Shown here: in pieces, positions 3,753 through 34,396 of the stretch
Position numbering within the stretch: position 1 is the first letter of the stretch
Layout of the letters: the number at the start of each line of letters is the position of its first letter
Assembly: GCA_964534105.1 (NCBI GenBank)
Contig: CAZHOF010000001.1
Location: forward strand, 13,126 to 48,243
Reading direction: 5' to 3'
From: an uncultured Candidatus Saccharibacteria bacterium
GTDB taxonomy: Bacteria; Patescibacteriota; Minisyncoccia; UBA6257; GWB1-50-10
Length of the DNA stretch: 35,118 nucleotides
The notes under the pieces: model-generated
Database searches by the model: none
Told to the model about the DNA's origin: nothing
Seen by the model: the letters and a program-made list of their open reading frames with translations, nothing else
Program-made: the position numbers and the translations under genes

Positions 3753-3894
3753 GCCCCTCACCTTTTCTTAATTTTCCGGCTATAATTTATATTAATTGCC
3801 GATGTAGCTCAGTTGGTAGAGCAACGCTTTCGTAAAGCGTGGGTCGTCGGTTCGAATCCGACCATCGGCTCATGATCGAGAAAAGGTGAGGGGC
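3753..3894. repeat. 15-nt perfect inverted repeat bracketing tRNA-Thr
   Basis: GCCCCTCACCTTTTC (3753-3767) and GAAAAGGTGAGGGGC (3880-3894) are exact reverse complements. They lie 30 nt upstream and 9 nt downstream of the tRNA. Confidence 0.85.
3798..3870 (+). tRNA. tRNA-Thr(CGT)
   Basis: Full cloverleaf: GCCGATG-TA-GCTC-AGTTGGTA-GAGC-A-ACGCT-TTCGTAA-AGCGT-GGGTC-GTCGG-TTCGAAT-CCGAC-CATCGGC-T. CCA is not encoded. A TATAAT lies at 3781-3786. Confidence 0.95.
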
Positions 3895-26480: not shown

Positions 26481-26711
26481 ATGCAAAAAGCACTGGAGAA
26501 AATAAAAGCATTTTTTAAAGAGGACTCCCGGCAGCTCGTTTTTTATGGAATGGCTCTCGTTTTCGCGATTACTACCCTTTGGTTTGTAATCTATGCCGCC
26601 TCTTTTCTCGCTGATAGCTTGGAAACAGTTTTTAACACAGTTCCTGTCACGAGCCAAAACACAACCGCGTTTGACATGGCTGGATTTGAGCAGCTAAACT
26701 TGAACCGATAA
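26481..26711 (+). CDS. Small hypothetical single-pass membrane protein
   Basis: 76 aa with TM helix LVFYGMALVFAITTLWFVIYAASF. Lies 5 nt after the previous gene. Confidence 0.45.
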   Translation: MQKALEKIKAFFKEDSRQLVFYGMALVFAITTLWFVIYAASFLADSLETVFNTVPVTSQNTTAFDMAGFEQLNLNR

Positions 26712-26715
26712 ATTC

Positions 26716-26787
26716 GGGCGTGTAGTTCAGTGGTAGAACGCTGTCCTGATAAGACAGAGGTCGATGGTCCGATTCCATCCACGCCCA
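26716..26787 (+). tRNA. tRNA-Ile(GAT)
   Basis: GGGCGTG-TA-GTTC-AGTGGTA-GAAC-G-CTGTC-CTGATAA-GACAG-AGGTC-GATGG-TCCGATT-CCATC-CACGCCC-A. CCA is not encoded. The T-loop reads TCC where TTC is usual. Confidence 0.9.
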
Positions 26788-26850
26788 CACGAATTTTCTC
26801 CGAGCGGAGCGAGGCAAGGAAATTCAGTGCCCGCCTGAGGCGGGCAACAT

Positions 26851-27093
26851 ATGCACTTTGTTTATGTGTTGAAAAGTACACGGGATGGCCATCGCTATGT
26901 TGGAAGCGCGAATGACGTGGAACGCCGTTTTCGAGAACACCAGCGCGGCAAAGTAAGCTCGACAGAACAGCGGCGACCCCTTATGCTTCTATACAGCGAG
27001 TGCTATACCACTCAAAAAGAAGCACTACAGCGGGAACAGTTTCTGAAGTCCGGAAAGGGGAGACAGTGGCTTGATGCAAGAGGGATACGGTAG
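26851..27093 (+). CDS. Small GIY-YIG nuclease family protein (YhbQ/UPF0213-like)
   Basis: 80 aa: FVYVLKS..DGHRYVGSANDVERRFREHQRGK...T...RP..LLYSE.Y....EAL.RE..LKS. Confidence 0.8.
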   Translation: MHFVYVLKSTRDGHRYVGSANDVERRFREHQRGKVSSTEQRRPLMLLYSECYTTQKEALQREQFLKSGKGRQWLDARGIR

Positions 27094-27126
27094 CTCGCCA
27101 AAGAGCAATAACAGAAAGTTGTAATA

Positions 27127-27161
27127 GGCCCCGTAGCTCAGTTGGTAGAGCACTACATTTG
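27127..27161 (+). pseudogene. tRNA-Ala-like 5' half, ending inside the anticodon
   Basis: GGCCCCG-TA-GCTC-AGTTGGTA-GAGC-A-CTACA-TTTG, then non-tRNA sequence TCCCGAT. Confidence 0.7.
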
Positions 27162-27211
27162 TCCCGATATTGTTCAAATTTTTCAAATTTGATTACAATA
27201 TCGAGGATCCT

Positions 27212-27320
27212 CGATAACTTTGGTGGGCCCGTAGCTTAGTTGGTAGAGCGCCACATTTGCAATGTGGAGGTCACCGGTTCGAATCCGGTCGGGTCCACCA
27301 TGGGCCCACCAAAGTTATCG
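27212..27320. repeat. 19-nt perfect inverted repeat bracketing tRNA-Ala
   Basis: CGATAACTTTGGTGGGCCC (27212-27230, including the first 6 nt of the tRNA) and GGGCCCACCAAAGTTATCG (27302-27320). Confidence 0.9.
27225..27300 (+). tRNA. tRNA-Ala(TGC), CCA encoded
   Basis: GGGCCCG-TA-GCTT-AGTTGGTA-GAGC-G-CCACA-TTTGCAA-TGTGG-AGGTC-ACCGG-TTCGAAT-CCGGT-CGGGTCC-A-CCA. G3:U70 is present. Confidence 0.95.
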
Positions 27321-27323
27321 GGA

Positions 27324-27361
27324 CAATGTAGGGGTCGCGGGTTCGAATCCCGCTCGGTCCA
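27324..27361 (+). pseudogene. tRNA-Ala-like 3' half (partner of 27127-27161)
   Basis: CAA-TGTAG-GGGTC-GCGGG-TTCGAAT-CCCGC-TCGGTCC-A. TGTAG complements CTACA of the 5' half. The acceptor complementarity is degraded. Confidence 0.7.
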
Positions 27362-27427
27362 CAAACGAGGATACTGCGTTCATTATCTCGGGATCGCGGA
27401 TAACATAATCGCATTACTCCTTGTTCT

Positions 27428-27472
27428 TCGGGACAATGTGGAGGTCACCGGTTCGAATCCGGTCGGGTCCAC
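27428..27472 (+). pseudogene. Orphan tRNA-Ala 3' half preceded by a TCGGGA junction
   Basis: 27434-27472 is identical to 27260-27298 of the intact gene (39 nt). It is preceded by TCGGGA, as at 27318. Confidence 0.8.
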
Positions 27473-27920: not shown

Positions 27921-28012
27921 TTTGGTTCTAATTAACACACATGAAGTCAAAAAAGTATCTTAATAAAAATCGGATTCAAATAGGAGCGGGGGCGGAAGAA
28001 CATCCGAGGTAA

Positions 28013-28021
28013 TGGTATAAT
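28013..28021 (+). promoter_or_regulatory. Extended -10 element upstream of the zinc-ribbon operon
   Basis: TGGTATAAT, 32 nt upstream of the 28054 ATG. Confidence 0.4.
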
Positions 28022-28053
28022 GTATATTACACACACTAATACACGACAAAACT

Positions 28054-28533
28054 ATGTTTTGCTCAAATTGCGGTACGAAAGTTAAAGGAAAGGCGAGTTT
28101 TTGTCAAAGTTGCGGCAAATCAATCGACAAGGGAAAAGCAACTACTTTAGCGGAAAGAACGGTGTCCGAATTTATGATCGCAAATCTTTTCAAGGGAAGA
28201 ATTGGGAGAAAGGAATGGGTATTGGGAATTATTCTTTTGATTGGAATGTTGTTTGCAACCGCCTTTCTTATTGCAAGTATTTCTGAATATCTTATTTTAT
28301 TAATTCCATTGTACATTGTTTATGCAGTTTTTCTTTTTTCACTTCATATTCGCCGCCTTCACGATTTGAACTATTCTGGGTGGGTTGCGTTAGTTTTTAG
28401 CATTCCAATAGCTAACTTGATATTACTTCTTATTTTAACCCTCTCTAGTGGAAAAGAGATAGAGAATAGATATGGGAAGAAGCTAGACCCGAACGCGAAA
28501 TTATTAGACGTTTTATTAGGCAAAGTGAATTAG
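28054..28533 (+). CDS. Zinc-ribbon / DUF805-like inner membrane protein
   Basis: N-terminal MFCSNCG..FCQSCG. GRIGRKEW, RRLHDLNYSGW and 3-4 TM helices are typical of DUF805 (YhaH-like). Confidence 0.7.
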   Translation: MFCSNCGTKVKGKASFCQSCGKSIDKGKATTLAERTVSEFMIANLFKGRIGRKEWVLGIILLIGMLFATAFLIASISEYLILLIPLYIVYAVFLFSLHIRRLHDLNYSGWVALVFSIPIANLILLLILTLSSGKEIENRYGKKLDPNAKLLDVLLGKVN

Positions 28534-28546
28534 TTAGATAGGCACC

Positions 28547-29233
28547 ATGTTCTGTACTAATTGTGGAGATAAGGTTAACGATGGAATTAAATTCTGCGGG
28601 AAATGTGGCAAAATTATTATCAATAAAAGCACAAACTTAAATTCTAGACGGACATCACCGCCCACCTATGAAAGAATAGAAAATTCAATATCTTACCTCC
28701 CCCAAATAATTCACGAGAAATCGAATCGGAGGTTATATTTTGGATATTTGCTGCTTACTGTGGCAGTTATTTTTTTCATTTATCAGATTAATTATGTTGC
28801 AATCGGACTCACTTGTTGGGGCGGATTTCTTGTTTTTAGACGGATAACTGATCGTGAAGACAAAAAGCATTATGCTTATCAGATTACCTCCTTAGCTGGA
28901 TATCAAAATATAAATGATTTATCGAAAGATTTTATTAGGACTGAAAAAGTTGGAATTGTAAAAATCGGTAGTTATAAGTTAAATAGCGATTTTCTTTCAA
29001 GGGAAAAGTTTTTCTCATATGAAATATATCCGATGTCGCAAATGTTCTGGGCCTATAAGAAGATCATTAGGAAAAGTATTAATTTTATACCAGTAGGCAA
29101 GGACTATGAGATAGTTATGCATTTCAAGCCAGATAAGGTAGTGTCCATTAAAGAACCGGAGAAAAGCACTGATCGGCATCTCATGCTTTTAATCCATCTT
29201 TGTCCAGAGGCAGAATTTGGATACGCGAAATAA
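28547..29233 (+). CDS. Zinc-ribbon membrane protein with an unknown C-terminal domain
   Basis: N-terminal MFCTNCG..FCGKCG, two hydrophobic helices, and a C-terminal domain of about 130 aa with no motif I recognise. Confidence 0.6.
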   Translation: MFCTNCGDKVNDGIKFCGKCGKIIINKSTNLNSRRTSPPTYERIENSISYLPQIIHEKSNRRLYFGYLLLTVAVIFFIYQINYVAIGLTCWGGFLVFRRITDREDKKHYAYQITSLAGYQNINDLSKDFIRTEKVGIVKIGSYKLNSDFLSREKFFSYEIYPMSQMFWAYKKIIRKSINFIPVGKDYEIVMHFKPDKVVSIKEPEKSTDRHLMLLIHLCPEAEFGYAK

Positions 29234-29249
29234 TCTTTTATAATCAGAC

Positions 29250-30305
29250 ATGTTTTGTAAACATTGTGGAGAAAAAATAAAAAAAAGTAATAAGTTTTGT
29301 AATTTCTGCGGTCAGGCTCTATTGCCAACAACACTAACAGAACAAAAGAGAGATTGGAATGGTTATCTTTGGAAAGCTCTACTTGTATCAGCAATTGTAA
29401 TAGCGATTGGCTTATATGCATTTATTTACTTTAGCGATCACGCTTCTGAAGATGATCACGCTTCTTCTCTTTTAAATGAGCTTGATCCTAATATTCAACC
29501 AGTCGGTTATTTCGATGATCCTAATGTTTTTGAATCAGAAAGTATCAGCGACGAGGAATGGTTTTCGCACCTTCAATATTATGAAATTGAAGATATTGCT
29601 CCCATATATGACAAATCTAGATTTCAATTCCCAAACCAGAGGGAAATACTTAGCTCAGTAGTAAAAATAGTTTGTGAAGATTCGAATTATTTTTATTATG
29701 GTTCAGGAACTAATTTTGATAGCGGTGGCTACGTTCTTACAAACTTACACGTTTTAGAAAACATAAACGGGAGATGTGTTATAGGATTTCCCGATCCCGA
29801 ATCCGGTTTAATAAAAGAAGCGTATTGGGCAGCTCCAATTATTGATAAAGACAACATCACTGGCCATGACTTAGCTTACTTATCCGTGGAGGACCCAGTA
29901 TTTGATGAGAGTTATAATATTTATGGGTATTATGACAAAATATTCGACGGTTCATTTTCTTATTTTGAAATAACAGAAGATTGTTCTAGTACCCCTACCC
30001 AACTTGGAGATAGATTATTCGTGGTTGGTTACCCACCTCTCAGTGGGGGAGCACTCACAATTACTGACGGTCTGGTGAGTAGTTTGTATTCTCGAGATGG
30101 TTACATCATTACTTCAGCGAAAATTGTTAGTGGTAATTCTGGCGGATTAGCTGTAGATGGACAAGGTTGTTATGTGGGGGTGCCAACAGCTGTATATTAT
30201 GAAGAGGGAGATGAGTATCTTGGCGAAATTATTGATGCAGAATTTGTTGACGAATTTGATGAGGCTGTTACAGATGATATCGACGAGTATTTTAATTCTC
30301 TGTAG
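29250..30305 (+). CDS. Zinc-ribbon-anchored trypsin-like serine protease
   Basis: N-terminal MFCKHCG..FCNFCG and one TM helix. The protease core has GSGTNFDSGGYVLTNLHV (His), GHDLAYL (Asp) and GNSGGLAVD (Ser). The C-terminal tail is acidic. Confidence 0.75.
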   Translation: MFCKHCGEKIKKSNKFCNFCGQALLPTTLTEQKRDWNGYLWKALLVSAIVIAIGLYAFIYFSDHASEDDHASSLLNELDPNIQPVGYFDDPNVFESESISDEEWFSHLQYYEIEDIAPIYDKSRFQFPNQREILSSVVKIVCEDSNYFYYGSGTNFDSGGYVLTNLHVLENINGRCVIGFPDPESGLIKEAYWAAPIIDKDNITGHDLAYLSVEDPVFDESYNIYGYYDKIFDGSFSYFEITEDCSSTPTQLGDRLFVVGYPPLSGGALTITDGLVSSLYSRDGYIITSAKIVSGNSGGLAVDGQGCYVGVPTAVYYEEGDEYLGEIIDAEFVDEFDEAVTDDIDEYFNSL

Positions 30306-30330
30306 GCCTATCTGCCCCTAAACCTAAGGG

Positions 30331-30367
30331 AATAAATGACTCAACCGGTTGAGTCATTTATTTTTCT
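30331..30367. terminator. Strong bidirectional intrinsic terminator
   Basis: 32-nt perfect palindrome AATAAATGACTCAACC/GGTTGAGTCATTTATT, followed by TTTTT. Confidence 0.8.
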
Positions 30368-30523
30368 GTCGCATTTCCTCATCACGGGCGGCGAGGCAAT
30401 CTTAGTTTTTGCTCAATCGCGGCAGAATTCCTACCCCCGATCTTCTCGTCGCGCCCGGCGGGTGTCCGGCCAAGCCACGAAGCAGTAAGGCATACTACTT
30501 ATGCATAGTAATCACTTTCTACG

Positions 30524-30532
30524 TGTTATAAT
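30524..30532 (+). promoter_or_regulatory. Extended -10 element upstream of the four-gene operon
   Basis: TGTTATAAT, 73 nt upstream of the 30606 ATG. Confidence 0.4.
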
Positions 30533-30605
30533 GTCCATAATAAGAAAAAACTGAGCAGTTTCGGCAAGAAAAGGGGCTCTTGCAAGACAAATTCTCCAAA
30601 AAGCT

Positions 30606-31604
30606 ATGTCTATATCTGAAAAATTACAAACTAGTGCGCTCGCTACAATCACGGCTCTCACTGTGCCGGTAATACTGCTGAATTTACTCGGCGGGATTGT
30701 GTCGGGTACCTGGTTAGCTATTTTAGGCGAATGGGGCGAAATAATCAGGGGCATAATCTTTTTTGTAGCGTCTGGTTTCGCTGTTTCTTTTGCCCTTATG
30801 CCCAGCTTGCTTTTTGCCGGACCTGCGGCAATAGCAATGGAGCGCGGTAAAAAGATTCTCGGAGCATTGTTTGGCTCGCTTAGCATACTTTATACCGTCG
30901 CCCTGATTACAGTGTGGTGTATTTGGGTCATGTGGCTTTTTGTGAGTTCTGCGGCTGAAAGCTCACTTATCCCACTATTGTTTTGGTCGTATGGCGTTGC
31001 CCTCGGGCCTTGGATGTGGCTTGCACAAAAAGATCAACAGGGCGGTGGAAATGAATTTTCGATACTCACGACATTTTTTGCACAAGCGGCATATATTTTG
31101 GGAATGATAATGTTTTTCTTTAATGCAACACTTGGAACTATTGCCGTAATATTTGGAATAATTATGCTTTCTGGTGCAATCTTCCAAATGATAATAGTGT
31201 TTGGCGGAGAAATGAAAAAATCGTTTGCTTCAAAAGATATTAAGGAAGCATTGGTAATTTTAGATGAAATAGGACGAACCATCGGCGGATCAGGTTTTGA
31301 TCTAGTACGGGAGCCAGTTGAAAAGTATCTTGTTTCTCATGGCAAGGAATACAAAGAAACCGTAAGTGAAACCTCCGCCCGCCAATGGGTTTATTCCGCC
31401 GTTGCCAATACTGCCGGAGATTTTATGGAAAGCGGACACTATCATATTTATCGTGGTGTGCTCAACCCAATGGGGCCGGGCGGAGACTTATTAAAACTCT
31501 TCGATAGTACGATTGATGAGCTTGTCAAAATGGGAGCATTGGAAGCGGAAAATGCGAAGAAAGAAAAAGCACGGCTCCGAAAGAATATGGACCAAATGGG
31601 ATAA
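30606..31604 (+). CDS. Polytopic membrane protein with a soluble C-terminal domain (unknown family)
   Basis: 332 aa with about 6 hydrophobic helices in the first 200 aa. The C-terminal region is soluble (GHYHIYRGVLNPMGPGGDLL). Confidence 0.65.
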   Translation: MSISEKLQTSALATITALTVPVILLNLLGGIVSGTWLAILGEWGEIIRGIIFFVASGFAVSFALMPSLLFAGPAAIAMERGKKILGALFGSLSILYTVALITVWCIWVMWLFVSSAAESSLIPLLFWSYGVALGPWMWLAQKDQQGGGNEFSILTTFFAQAAYILGMIMFFFNATLGTIAVIFGIIMLSGAIFQMIIVFGGEMKKSFASKDIKEALVILDEIGRTIGGSGFDLVREPVEKYLVSHGKEYKETVSETSARQWVYSAVANTAGDFMESGHYHIYRGVLNPMGPGGDLLKLFDSTIDELVKMGALEAENAKKEKARLRKNMDQMG

Positions 31605-31607
31605 AAC

Positions 31608-32585
31608 ATGCCGAAATCAAATCGAGAAAAACTAAAAGAATTACAAACAACCCTCGAACAAATTAAACAGAGAGCTAATGAGATTGAACAAAAAATCAAC
31701 AACAGCCAAGTTTCTCTCGATCAAATTTCCCAACATAAAACGAGCGCGGAGCAGTGGCGCGGGGAAATTGAAACAATAAAGAACCAGTCGACAGAAGCCC
31801 GTGGCGAGATAGAAGCGCTAAAAGAAGAAATCGAGGAAACGAAAGATGAACTCACTGAAAAACTGAATGCGGTTGAAGTAAAGAAAGAAGACATTGATAA
31901 ATTCTTCATCAAAATTTTTGGCGAGGAAGATGAACAAGGAAAACAATCAGGCGGACTTAGTACGAGATTAAATCAGAAAGAAAAAGAGGCAGATACTTTC
32001 CTTAACGCTCAAGAGAAAAAATACAAGGAGCTGTTTGAAAAGATAGAATCCCTATTACCGGGAGCAGCAAGTACGGGGCTAGCTAAGGCATATTATGACC
32101 AGAAAATTAGCTACAAATGGCCGATTAGGGCTTGGGCTATTGTTTTCGTTCTAGCGTTAGTAGGCGTATTTATAACTGGCCTATTAAGTTACGAAAATGG
32201 TATCAAACTTAGCTTCGAGGAACTTCTTAATGTTGAACAAGCCACATCAAAACTGATTGCTAGAATTCCATTTTTCTTTGCGCTTATTTGGTTGGCGGCA
32301 TTTAGCTCTAAGCAGTACAGACAGAATAAGAGATTAGAGCAGGAGTATGCTCATAAGGAAGTACTGGCGAAATCGTATCAGGGGTATAAGCGAGAACTTG
32401 AATCACAAGGGAAAACAGCGGCTGACAAAGAGATTATTGCTGCTTTACATAAAGTCCTAGTTGCCACAATAGCAAAAAATCCGAGCGAAATAATGGACGA
32501 TGGACGCAAAGACGATACGCCGTCAATTTGGACCAAACCGTTCAATTTAACAATATTTGGGAAAGATAAGAATGGACAAAAATAA
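31608..32585 (+). CDS. Coiled-coil protein with a 2-TM hairpin (unknown family)
   Basis: 325 aa. The first 150 aa or so are E/K/Q-rich. Then LPGAASTGLAKAYY and two helices (WAIVFVLALVGVFITGLL, IPFFFALIWLAAF), followed by a charged tail. Confidence 0.65.
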   Translation: MPKSNREKLKELQTTLEQIKQRANEIEQKINNSQVSLDQISQHKTSAEQWRGEIETIKNQSTEARGEIEALKEEIEETKDELTEKLNAVEVKKEDIDKFFIKIFGEEDEQGKQSGGLSTRLNQKEKEADTFLNAQEKKYKELFEKIESLLPGAASTGLAKAYYDQKISYKWPIRAWAIVFVLALVGVFITGLLSYENGIKLSFEELLNVEQATSKLIARIPFFFALIWLAAFSSKQYRQNKRLEQEYAHKEVLAKSYQGYKRELESQGKTAADKEIIAALHKVLVATIAKNPSEIMDDGRKDDTPSIWTKPFNLTIFGKDKNGQK

Positions 32586-32597
32586 CATACAAACCCC

Positions 32598-33521
32598 ATG
32601 ATTGTGCCTAAAAGGATAACCAAAAGGAAAATTACTATACCTATATCTAGTACCAATGGAGGAAATAGCGTTGCTCGGACAGACATTCAGTTTGGAAGTA
32701 AGAGTATTACTTTATTAATAGGGCTGGATTTACTGATTAGGATTCAGTACAAAGAACAACGCGAGAAAAAAGTTCTTAAAACACTTAAAGGTAAAATTCT
32801 TAGAGACAGAAGACTCTTCACGGCAAAAAACCGAAAGTCTACCCAAAAGTTTTTAGTTGCTGACCGAGAAATAAGAGAGTTGTTAAATAAGGACAAAAAG
32901 GAGTTAAATAAAAGAAATAAGTCAGAGTTCGAAGACTTTTCTAGTAATCTTAAGCGAAGACAGGATTTACTATTAAAAATAGCGAAGGATTTAAACTTCG
33001 ATGTTGTCCGATCGCATAAGGAATACATTTGTAAAAATTGCAACGGGTTTCGAGCAGGGCCTAGTCTTGCAGCAACAAGCAAACCAACATGCGCATTATG
33101 TAAAAACCTACTCAAAGGATTTAATATTCAGCAAATAGATACAGATGTGGCGGCTTATTTAACTGGTTATTGGTTAGAAGATTATGTTGCTAATATTCTA
33201 AGTAAAAATAATTGGGAAGCATGGTCATCTCCCACTCTATTGGTCTATGGTGTATCCGGAGCTTCTCATCAAGTTGATGTGCTAGCAATCAAAGACGGGC
33301 GAATTCTTATTATTGAGTGTAAAACAGGAGAATTCGCGCCAACTCAAGTTATGAATTTTTTAGGAAAGTACCATGATATCCGTTGCCATCAAGCGCTAGC
33401 TGTTTCAATTGGAAAGATTCACCCGGATGCCAGAAAAATAATAGAAAAGAATGTGGCGATAGATTATTATGATAATATAAATGACTATAAAAAATTAATT
33501 GAGAAAATTAAAAAATTATGA
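32598..33521 (+). CDS. Zn-ribbon plus PD-(D/E)xK (NERD/restriction-endonuclease-like) nuclease
   Basis: 307 aa with a K/R-rich N-terminus and CKNCNG...CALCKN. The core HQVDVLAIKDGRILIIECKTGE shows a D...ExK pattern. Confidence 0.65.
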   Translation: MIVPKRITKRKITIPISSTNGGNSVARTDIQFGSKSITLLIGLDLLIRIQYKEQREKKVLKTLKGKILRDRRLFTAKNRKSTQKFLVADREIRELLNKDKKELNKRNKSEFEDFSSNLKRRQDLLLKIAKDLNFDVVRSHKEYICKNCNGFRAGPSLAATSKPTCALCKNLLKGFNIQQIDTDVAAYLTGYWLEDYVANILSKNNWEAWSSPTLLVYGVSGASHQVDVLAIKDGRILIIECKTGEFAPTQVMNFLGKYHDIRCHQALAVSIGKIHPDARKIIEKNVAIDYYDNINDYKKLIEKIKKL

Positions 33522-33814
33522 CAAGAGTAACTAAGCAATCCGGCGTCTTGCCGTGGCAAGCAACAAATATTTCTACTGCACCATCTAAACCTGGAGTTTA
33601 TGCACTAAGGACTTCGACCGAAATAAGCAGTGTTGTTTACATAGGAAGTTCTGACAACATTGAAAGAAGGCTGAATGAGCATTTTTTGTTAGGCGATATT
33701 CCTGGGATTTCGTTCTTTGACTGGTATGAGGCCGACTCTATGGAAGCCGCACGAGAGCTTGAAAAAGAGTGGATAGTTAAACATTCTCCAAAATACAATA
33801 CTCGGGTTGGGTAA
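33518..33814 (+). CDS. GIY-YIG domain nuclease
   Basis: 98 aa: PGVYALR...VVYIGSSDNIERRLNEH, ..ARELEKEWI. Start overlaps the upstream stop (ATGA). Confidence 0.75.
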   Translation: MTRVTKQSGVLPWQATNISTAPSKPGVYALRTSTEISSVVYIGSSDNIERRLNEHFLLGDIPGISFFDWYEADSMEAARELEKEWIVKHSPKYNTRVG

Positions 33815-33853
33815 TGGTGATTTGATGATTTTGTGATGATATGATGTAGATAT

Positions 33854-34396
33854 ATGGGTATCCTGGTTCGCAGCTATACGGAAGACGGTTATCAGTCCAT
33901 TCCCTCAGTGCGTCTTTCGGACGAGGAGTATGGAAGAGGATTGCAATGTTTCGTGCCGGTGTGTACGGACATTGCTATTATCGACCGGAAGACGCAAACG
34001 ATCTATCTGGCTAAACGAAAAACGAAACCGATGCCCGATTGGTGGTGGATCGGCGGCCGCATGGAACCGCACGAGACGAAAGAGGAAGCCGCGGTAAGAA
34101 GCTTCGAACGCGAAACCGGCTTAAAACTCCCTCAAAACCGTTTTCAGCTGGCCACAATTTTCGATTATCGTTACAAAGATCGGGCTCAAACGCCGCAGGA
34201 GATCGGATGTCACACTCTCGGCTACACGTTTGTTGTTGAGCTGGAACCGGCGGAACTAGCTTTCGCGTCTTCTCATCTTGAAAGACATGAATATGAACCA
34301 AGCGCCGGTCTTCCTCCTTTTAATCGGGAACAATTAATCGAAAAGAATGTATTCCCAGCAATCCTCGATCTTTTTAACCATGTTTTTCCGATTTGA
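33854..34396 (+). CDS. NUDIX hydrolase
   Basis: Nudix box GGRMEPHETKEEAAVRSFERETGL. Confidence 0.85.
   Translation: MGILVRSYTEDGYQSIPSVRLSDEEYGRGLQCFVPVCTDIAIIDRKTQTIYLAKRKTKPMPDWWWIGGRMEPHETKEEAAVRSFERETGLKLPQNRFQLATIFDYRYKDRAQTPQEIGCHTLGYTFVVELEPAELAFASSHLERHEYEPSAGLPPFNREQLIEKNVFPAILDLFNHVFPI

Follow-up and report, generated by a model that had tools for sequence, protein, structure and literature searches.

How does a bacterial genome come to hold a tRNA gene in the middle of a long, perfect inverted repeat? This question is raised by a tRNA-Ala(UGC) gene of an uncultured Candidatus Saccharibacteria bacterium of the Patescibacteriota, found in a stretch of 35,118 nucleotides (nt) that we refer to as the window (GenBank assembly GCA_964534105.1, contig CAZHOF010000001.1, positions 13,126 to 48,243 of the forward strand). 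The window is C1:13126-48243 of the genome that we call G000, whose assembly comprises 633 kb in 68 contigs and is 90% complete. We believe that the tRNA gene is probably the spare copy carried by a selfish element. This element is bounded by inverted repeats, contains two hairpins, and split a resident tRNA-Ala gene; the palindrome around the tRNA is its second hairpin.

A repeat search placed the perfect arms at 27212-27230 and 27302-27320, 19 nt each, 100% complementary, and 71 nt apart. A perfect inverted repeat of this length (19 nt) within about 100 nt would not arise by chance, the expected number in the window being about 1e-5 (estimated as 35118 x 100 / 4^19). The core arms measure 13 nt (27212-27224 and 27308-27320), and pairing of tRNA bases G1 to C6 with the GGGCCC at 27302-27307 extends them to 19. 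The preliminary description of this locus had noticed an intact tRNA-Ala with an encoded CCA inside the palindrome. ARAGORN and Rfam agreed on this tRNA at 75 bits, and a script confirmed that deleting 27231-27307 leaves 32 nt equal to their own reverse complement. The tails had also been read correctly: tRNA-Thr is followed by CAT, tRNA-Ile by CAC, and two 3' half genes by CAA and CAC. The suggestion of a cassette held up in that the tRNA appears to be cargo in a hairpin of a mobile-looking element. Both 3' halves had been spotted, while their link to the palindrome had been missed, namely, that the palindrome is part of a larger element and this element, in turn, interrupts a split tRNA gene. 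The inner tRNA was the sole tRNA-Ala(UGC) gene found in the genome.

The larger element, element A, lies between G35 and C36 of an older, split tRNA-Ala gene (Table 1; outer halves A). Its terminal inverted repeats have the form TCCCGAY ... RTCGGGA in the window and in relatives. Target-site duplication is absent: joining the TTTG before the element to the CAA after it restores the anticodon loop TTTGCAA, and the same holds for a split tRNA-Trp gene, in which CTC and CAAA flank the insert. The outer gene looks decayed. The acceptor strand of its 5' half reads GGCCCCG, with C3 where alanine identity needs G3, and the outer acceptor stem, when paired by hand, has the mismatches C3.U70 and C6.C67.

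Downstream of this split gene are the traces of an earlier event. The stretch at 27373-27433 resembles the 3' module of a sister-subfamily element, with 54 of 69 alignment columns identical to locus L081 of genome G019 and 44 of 56 to locus L082 of genome G025, and in both of these genomes the matching module directly precedes the outer 3' half. In the window, it is followed by 3' half B, which equals the 3' half of the inner tRNA over a 39-nt repeat (27434-27472) and in all likelihood was once part of an earlier resident gene, as its 3' half. We conclude that splitting and replacement occurred at least twice at this locus. In the proposed order of events, an older invasion would have left 3' half B and the module remnant, and the tRNA that it brought (now halves A) would later have been split by element A. 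Element A would thus have entered what was then the resident tRNA-Ala(UGC) gene between G35 and C36, leaving dead halves, and the intact tRNA-Ala(UGC) in hairpin 2 would now supply the lost function.

Table 1. Features of the nested tRNA-Ala locus and its surroundings (window coordinates; ORF, open reading frame; aa, amino acids).
Feature	Positions	Strand	Description and evidence
tRNA-Ile(GAU)	26716-26788	+	Intact, no CCA; 72.7 bits
GIY-YIG nuclease ORF, 80 aa	26851-27093	+	Pfam PF01541, E 3.4e-16; ends 33 nt upstream of the split gene
Outer 5' half A	27127-27161	+	tRNA positions 1-35; ends TTTG (U32 U33 U34 G35); 89% identical to the inner 5' half
Element A	27162-27323	+	162 nt; ends TCCCGAT (27162-27168) and ATCGGGA (27317-27323)
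Hairpin 1	27165-27203	+	CGATATTGT ... ACAATATCG; empty in the window; sequence and predicted fold
Central 16-nt palindrome ATCGAGGATCCTCGAT	27200-27215	+	Signature of the element family
Hairpin 2	27212-27320	+	Repeat search, covariation in 12 loci, predicted folds
Inner tRNA-Ala(UGC)	27225-27300	+	ARAGORN and Rfam, 75 bits; body 27225-27297, CCA 27298-27300; G3:U70
T + GGGCCCACCA	27301-27311	+	Second near-copy of the tRNA 3' end (GGGTCCACCA); locus comparison
Outer 3' half A	27324-27361	+	tRNA positions 36-73; starts CAA; 79% identical to the inner 3' half
3'-module remnant	27373-27433	+	From an older sister-subfamily element; ends TTCGGGA; local alignment
3' half B	27434-27471	+	tRNA positions 36-73, then CAC; 5' partner missing

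The DNA of the G000 organism is present in lake-water metagenomes, and these were used to examine the assembly. Lake-water contigs, with two possible source runs excluded, matched window positions 26760-27254 and 27269-27463 with 0 differences; among the contig records listed, no single one bridged 27255-27268. Because contigs from other runs reproduce both flanking stretches without a difference, the nested arrangement is real and not an assembly artifact. Joints between read contigs at the locus were called on sides of 20 to 31 nt at an 85% threshold and probably stem from the tRNA genes of other organisms. One contig of run X4 (depth 5.9, same threshold) joined 26789, at the end of tRNA-Ile, to 27225, base G1 of tRNA-Ala, through five other letters. 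It may represent the alanine arrangement without the GIY-YIG gene or the nest in a related organism of the same lake. Among the RNA runs, none had more than 0.07 of the sampled words from the locus.

We then asked how often this design recurs. An alanine-type 5' half cut at G35 by an element was searched for in 401 genomes of the order, which gave 28 matches in 25 genomes compared to 17 for the reversed control. Since the chance background of this pattern is high, only matches in a tRNA context were used. Each of these 13, at 12 loci and in several families, was followed on the same strand by an intact tRNA-Ala(UGC), as opposed to 0 of the other 15. For the inner tRNAs, we counted L002, L049, and L019 in with the 12 pattern loci (L078 being the window and L091 lying in genome G034), and 14 of 14 scored 62.9 to 75.7 bits against the Rfam tRNA model. 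The outer copies fared differently. With the insert removed in silico, 4 of 11 were still called Ala(UGC); of the others, one had a valine anticodon on an alanine acceptor, one had mismatched halves, and five carried more inserts in the D or T loops. In each of the 12 Ala(UGC) loci, the halves abutted the element ends at 35/36, and an Ala(CGC) locus had its junction at the corresponding position.

The design is also not restricted to alanine. Our own genome has further nests on contigs C7 (tRNA-Thr-UGU in a tRNA-Thr gene), C19 (Gly), and C5 (Val-CAC in split halves). Relatives have nests for Trp, Leu, Glu, Lys, and Ala-CGC, with the spare in either of the two hairpins or immediately next to the element. 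Partial forms were found as well: a 5' half followed by an element and a full tRNA (L080 and L013), a full tRNA followed by an arm and a 3' half (L005), and an extra outer 5' half (G025). These forms fit recombination among repeated halves.

Such precise insertions into loops (anticodon 35/36, D loop, T loop) would also be expected of an intron that is spliced from the outer pre-tRNA, so that both tRNAs are made. This would be a new tRNA-encoding bacterial intron, and it would agree with the highly structured element (predicted), with a nuclease ORF in a hairpin loop as in mobile introns, and with the intron mode of ARAGORN, in which the outer halves on C5, C7, and C19 are put back together as cloverleaves. 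However, an intact copy stands beside 13 of 13 split Ala(UGC) matches, and the outer copies have accumulated the mismatches, anticodon changes, and extra insertions described above. In the predicted fold, both insert junctions abut one continuous helix, with the anticodon loop forming a 4 x 3 internal loop, and there is no bulge-helix-bulge motif. None of 5 genomes had a match to the splicing endonuclease family PF01974, one of the 5 had RtcB, and neither the window nor the 14 loci matched an Rfam intron or ribozyme. In group I introns, the 5' splice site is preceded by a U and the intron ends in G; here, the exon ends in G35 and the element in A, contrary to this rule. When 81 empty elements were excised in silico, 0 of 81 rebuilt a tRNA. 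We therefore consider RNA splicing of the element very unlikely.

An RNA-level intervening sequence of another kind, in which the long helices are cut by RNase III, RNase P, and 3' processing, the inner tRNA is set free, and the outer halves are joined or work as a two-piece tRNA, would seem to have a comparably slim chance. If true, the element would amount to a bacterial tRNA intron that is not self-splicing, holds the gene of a second tRNA, and is DNA mobile via its nuclease gene, a bacterial counterpart of the split and multi-intron tRNAs of archaea.

The exactness of the junctions also bears on integration. The halves could be att-site relics of an island integrated at a tRNA gene by an integrase, as 3' half B exactly duplicates the 3' part of the tRNA and the G+C content falls to 0.35 at 28 to 30 kb, downstream of the locus. 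Yet the ORFs tested near the locus had no recombinase domain, 5' halves are present as well as 3' halves, and the halves abut the element ends exactly at all 12 Ala(UGC) loci and at the Ala(CGC) equivalent. This gives integration the faintest probability of the explanations that we considered. The low-G+C region spans window positions 28000-34000 (0.35 to 0.40, versus 0.44 to 0.51 elsewhere), and no integrase was seen there among the ORFs tested. It encodes zinc-ribbon membrane proteins, a coiled-coil protein, and an Mrr-like nuclease.

The preliminary description had offered the encoded CCA and the two GGGCCC motifs as possible signs of a retro-copied mature tRNA, or of a tRNA-sized unit dropped into the center of a 32-nt palindrome with a 6-bp duplication. 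It had called this tRNA the only one with an encoded CCA, which is correct within the window (one of three tRNA genes) and incorrect for the genome, where ARAGORN found CCA in 6 of 37 tRNA genes: Ala-UGC (C1), Leu-GAG (C3), Val-CAC (C5), two Met (C24), and Ala-GGC (C35). Many CCA-encoding genes and a palindrome that never occurs empty had been named as the outcomes that would refute a retro-copy, and both were obtained; the empty 32-nt palindrome had 0 matches (up to 3 mismatches) in the genome and in the fetched loci L001 to L174. Five of the six CCA-encoding genes have unusual contexts, being nested, flanked by inverted repeats, or next to a GIY-YIG gene. In the stretch C3:21118-21290, tRNA-Leu(GAG) with CCA precedes a hairpin, after which its own T arm and acceptor end reappear as an inverted copy of 18 nt. 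The CCA-adding enzyme family PF01743 had no match in the G000 assembly, an absence that is uninformative at 90% completeness.

Comparison of the 12 loci suggested another source for these motifs. The leader before G1 is GGT in 12 of 12 loci and pairs with the ACC of the 3' arm. In 7 of the 12, the tRNA's own A73-C-C(-A) begins the 3' arm and there is no duplication. The remaining five, including the window, have a second copy of the acceptor strand followed by ACCA and the arm, starting 1 to 7 nt after the tRNA end. Thus, the supposed 6-bp duplication is a copy of the acceptor 3' strand. Among these five loci with a second GGGYCC, the tRNA tail is CCA in the window alone and CCC, CAG, CAT, or CAC in the others, so that four of five tRNAs of the duplicated form have no CCA of their own. 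Locus L005 (G018) has a window-type arm without the extra 11 nt, and the fused form would arise from the duplicated one if the DNA between its two acceptor-strand copies were deleted. ACC(A) does follow an acceptor-like strand in all 12 loci, as a retro-copy would have it, but these loci are homologous and the motif is part of the conserved arm that pairs with the leader TGG(T). Moreover, empty members of the element family do not look like a loopless palindrome. Because both belong to the conserved arm design (TGGT pairs with ACCA), the encoded CCA and the second GGGCCC appear to be by-products of that arm and not marks of reverse transcription, and a retro-copied origin is highly improbable.

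The conservation of the arm could have a cause at the RNA level. Over the 12 loci, 152 of 156 cells of the 13-bp arm are paired, with three to five pair types at positions 4 to 10; pairs were counted by script outward from the tRNA, as the MAFFT alignment was unusable with junction variants of different lengths. The predicted RNA fold (-64.1 kcal/mol, z -6.5) forms a long helix, continuous over about 19 to 20 bp in both junction variants. The arms might therefore be kept mainly for RNA processing, for which the preliminary description had allowed as an alternative. The tRNA would then be part of a long precursor, and RNase III would cut the helix, as it does in the processing stems of rRNAs or in 23S intervening sequences, before RNase P and 3' trimming act. 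The genome has an RNase III gene, and no terminator-like site was found between tRNA-Ile and 27560. Nevertheless, the same hairpins are retained in empty family members, where there is no tRNA in need of processing, and in the predicted fold the acceptor 3' strand of the tRNA is displaced by the helix, so that tRNA folding would be hindered rather than helped. A processing role for the stem can coexist with a selfish element; that processing, and not DNA mobility, maintains the palindrome is an explanation to which we give a minor, though real, chance.

The empty members just mentioned belong to a dispersed family. The core ATCGAGGATCCTCGAT (up to 2 mismatches) was found in 61 of 96 family genomes, compared to 18 of 96 with any match to the reversed control, as counted from our table. 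Genome G064 has about 20 copies of approximately 85 to 100 nt with the same ends, two plain hairpins, and the core. When 20 stretches of this genome were fetched, the element was present in all 20 (three with diverged cores) and a tRNA gene was near only one. A stricter pattern gave at least 127 stretches in public genomes, mostly labelled Patescibacteria and a few with other labels. In our own genome, the true copies seen were those in the window, on C7, and on C18; a regular-expression census there returned mostly long chance pairs. A Y1_Tnp transposase was found in G064, G100, and G101 (three of the four high-copy genomes tested), in genes without a flanking element, and had no match in G000 or G066, the five genomes tested being these.

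A smaller repeat was seen in the dead outer halves of several families. Palindromes of about 20 nt, rich in G+C and of the CCTGCCTGCC/GGCAGGCAGG type, occupy their D and T loops (L074, L089, and L090 outer halves and the L081 D loop), and in L074 one follows the anticodon stem directly. These look like a second kind of loop-seeking mini-element.

If the element is mobile, the small GIY-YIG protein is a plausible nuclease. Intact GIY-YIG ORFs of 83 to 84 aa lie in the hairpin 1 loop of three of the 12 nested loci (L083, L086, and L088, in three other genomes), and the window ORF aligns as a homologue of these (alignment and tblastn). Locus L019 has a hairpin 1 copy that is 72% identical to the L088 ORF and was read as carrying an in-frame stop. 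Our own genome has five GIY-YIG paralogues, of which three adjoin tRNA genes. One, C24:6377-6601, lies between the two CCA-encoding tRNA-Met genes, and another, C59:539-742, starts 16 nt after a tRNA-Arg gene.

Protein genes gave two further cases of a split gene with a replacement. In genome G054, locus L024 (C42) has an 84-nt element at 1467-1550, directly after 20 codons of an old fusA start that is cut within the region of the GTP-binding motif. A fresh fusA start follows after 19 nt. Between the old start and the new one, 44 of 61 nt and 19 of 20 residues are identical, and the differences are mostly synonymous. In our own genome, a 70-nt element at C18:599-668 follows an old leuS start (..YDFGKIEAKW), and a fresh start, MKYDYKKIERKWQRIW, begins 15 nt later.

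The fusA case helps to weigh a local rescue without cargo, in which a MITE (short for miniature inverted-repeat transposable element) would have entered a tRNA gene that was already duplicated, or repair would have made the duplicate, with no transfer between genomes. The identity of the inner tRNA to 3' half B (39/39) and to the host-type tRNA-Ala of G007 is in keeping with this, and so are the nearly identical inner and outer copies in G034. Local rescue nevertheless leaves unexplained that the hairpin loop should be the place of the intact copy, between conserved TGG/ACC arm ends, at each of the 12 loci, and that Thr, Gly, Val, Glu, and Ala-CGC should share the design. In addition, the fusA starts differ at 17 of 61 nt and 1 of 20 residues, as would copies that diverged under selection in different lineages. 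We consider a purely local origin improbable.

We thus return to an element that splits a gene and carries a spare. We infer that its spread would most likely occur at the DNA level, by break repair or recombination in which the split halves serve as homology arms. The nuclease would plausibly be the small GIY-YIG protein, which lies in hairpin 1 of full-length copies and adjoins the locus here, and short copies with neither ORF nor tRNA would behave like MITEs. Several points weigh against this reading. The movement of the element and the activity of its enzyme are deduced from sequence comparison. In the window, the ORF is not part of the element, no such ORF is seen at 8 of the 12 nested tRNA-Ala(UGC) loci, and the 80-aa protein consists of the domain only and may not be a site-specific endonuclease. 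With a Y1 transposase in three of five genomes, another enzyme may move the short copies. The inner tRNA equals both 3' half B and the plain tRNA-Ala of the relative G007; therefore, the cargo of the window locus may or may not be foreign. The reading offers no account of how hairpin 2 came to acquire a matching tRNA in the first place. A pure cargo model also predicts cargo-bearing hairpins away from tRNA genes, and a small search for these found none. Finally, selection for RNA processing would give the same covariation of the arms.

The locus has one further possible counterpart in the window. ARAGORN and Rfam found three tRNA genes there (Thr-CGU, Ile-GAU, and Ala-UGC), and tRNA-Thr(CGU) at 3798-3871 is enclosed, together with an AT-rich leader, by a 17-nt inverted repeat (GCCCCTCACCTTTTCTT / GAGAAAAGGTGAGGGGC; window 3753-3894). 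This repeat is not of the CCCGAT type, yet it makes a second tRNA that is held in a long stem. Near the tRNA-Ile gene, a promoter-like TTGACA-18-TAAACT is present at 26671-26700. The proteins encoded in the window include EF-G, EF-Tu, SecY, topoisomerase I, and DprA, which mark the organism as a bacterium, and the genome size and the named relatives with the same repeat family put it in the Patescibacteria.

We compared the element with known systems. By description, it can be likened to MITEs and repetitive extragenic palindromic (REP) sequences of bacteria. Like these, it is short, dispersed, and structured, with conserved inverted ends and copies without an ORF. Unlike these, no target-site duplication was seen, some copies hold a GIY-YIG ORF or a tRNA in a hairpin loop, and insertions into tRNA loops come with a spare gene.

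A closer likeness in logic is found in fungal mitochondria. In the sections of PMC3630166 on which we draw, the mobile endonuclease ORF elements (mORFs) in Glomus atp6, atp9, cox2, and nad3 bring with them a foreign version of the gene end whose place they take, and an Allomyces atp6 case is cited there as well. As in our system, an insert associated with an endonuclease (GIY-YIG or LAGLIDADG in theirs) splits an essential gene, replaces the lost part, and leaves a native remnant. According to the same sections, inserted and native copies differ mostly by synonymous changes, the signature seen for fusA in G054. The differences are that our element is bacterial, targets mainly tRNA genes, and supplies a whole tRNA and not a gene end. 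It also has a two-hairpin palindromic backbone that exists as short copies without an ORF, and it replaces protein genes at their 5' ends and not at their C termini.

Inserts with GIY-YIG ORFs are also found in rRNA genes of the Candidate Phyla Radiation (CPR), the bacterial group to which our organism belongs. As given in the part of PMC11270868 that we cite, some of these inserts fit neither the group I nor the group II type of intron, among them ones that encode GIY-YIG proteins, and many short, uncharacterized inserts of <200 bp lie at the tips of stem-loops; that part mentions tRNA 0 times. For archaea, the portion of PMC10714607 used here summarizes the split and intron-bearing tRNA genes of Nanoarchaeum and Caldivirga. 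As in archaeal split tRNAs, our halves are flanked by complementary sequences and insertions occur at several loop positions. Unlike those, our case is from a bacterium, has no bulge-helix-bulge and no splicing endonuclease, and always has an intact copy present. A literature search, covering papers without their supplements, found no description of such nested tRNA genes in bacteria.

Taken together, these data suggest that a selfish element can live in an essential and very short gene without RNA splicing by bringing a spare. The tRNA pseudo-halves that it leaves behind confuse annotation and call for caution in tRNA-based or marker-gene phylogeny within this group. The element may also link the unexplained, GIY-YIG-bearing, non-intron inserts of CPR rRNA genes to a defined structured element. 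If our reading is true, one element family repeatedly overwrites tRNA genes and the starts of fusA and leuS in Patescibacteria with their tiny genomes, maybe with copies from other lineages, and the most conserved of genes would thereby have a way of being replaced horizontally.

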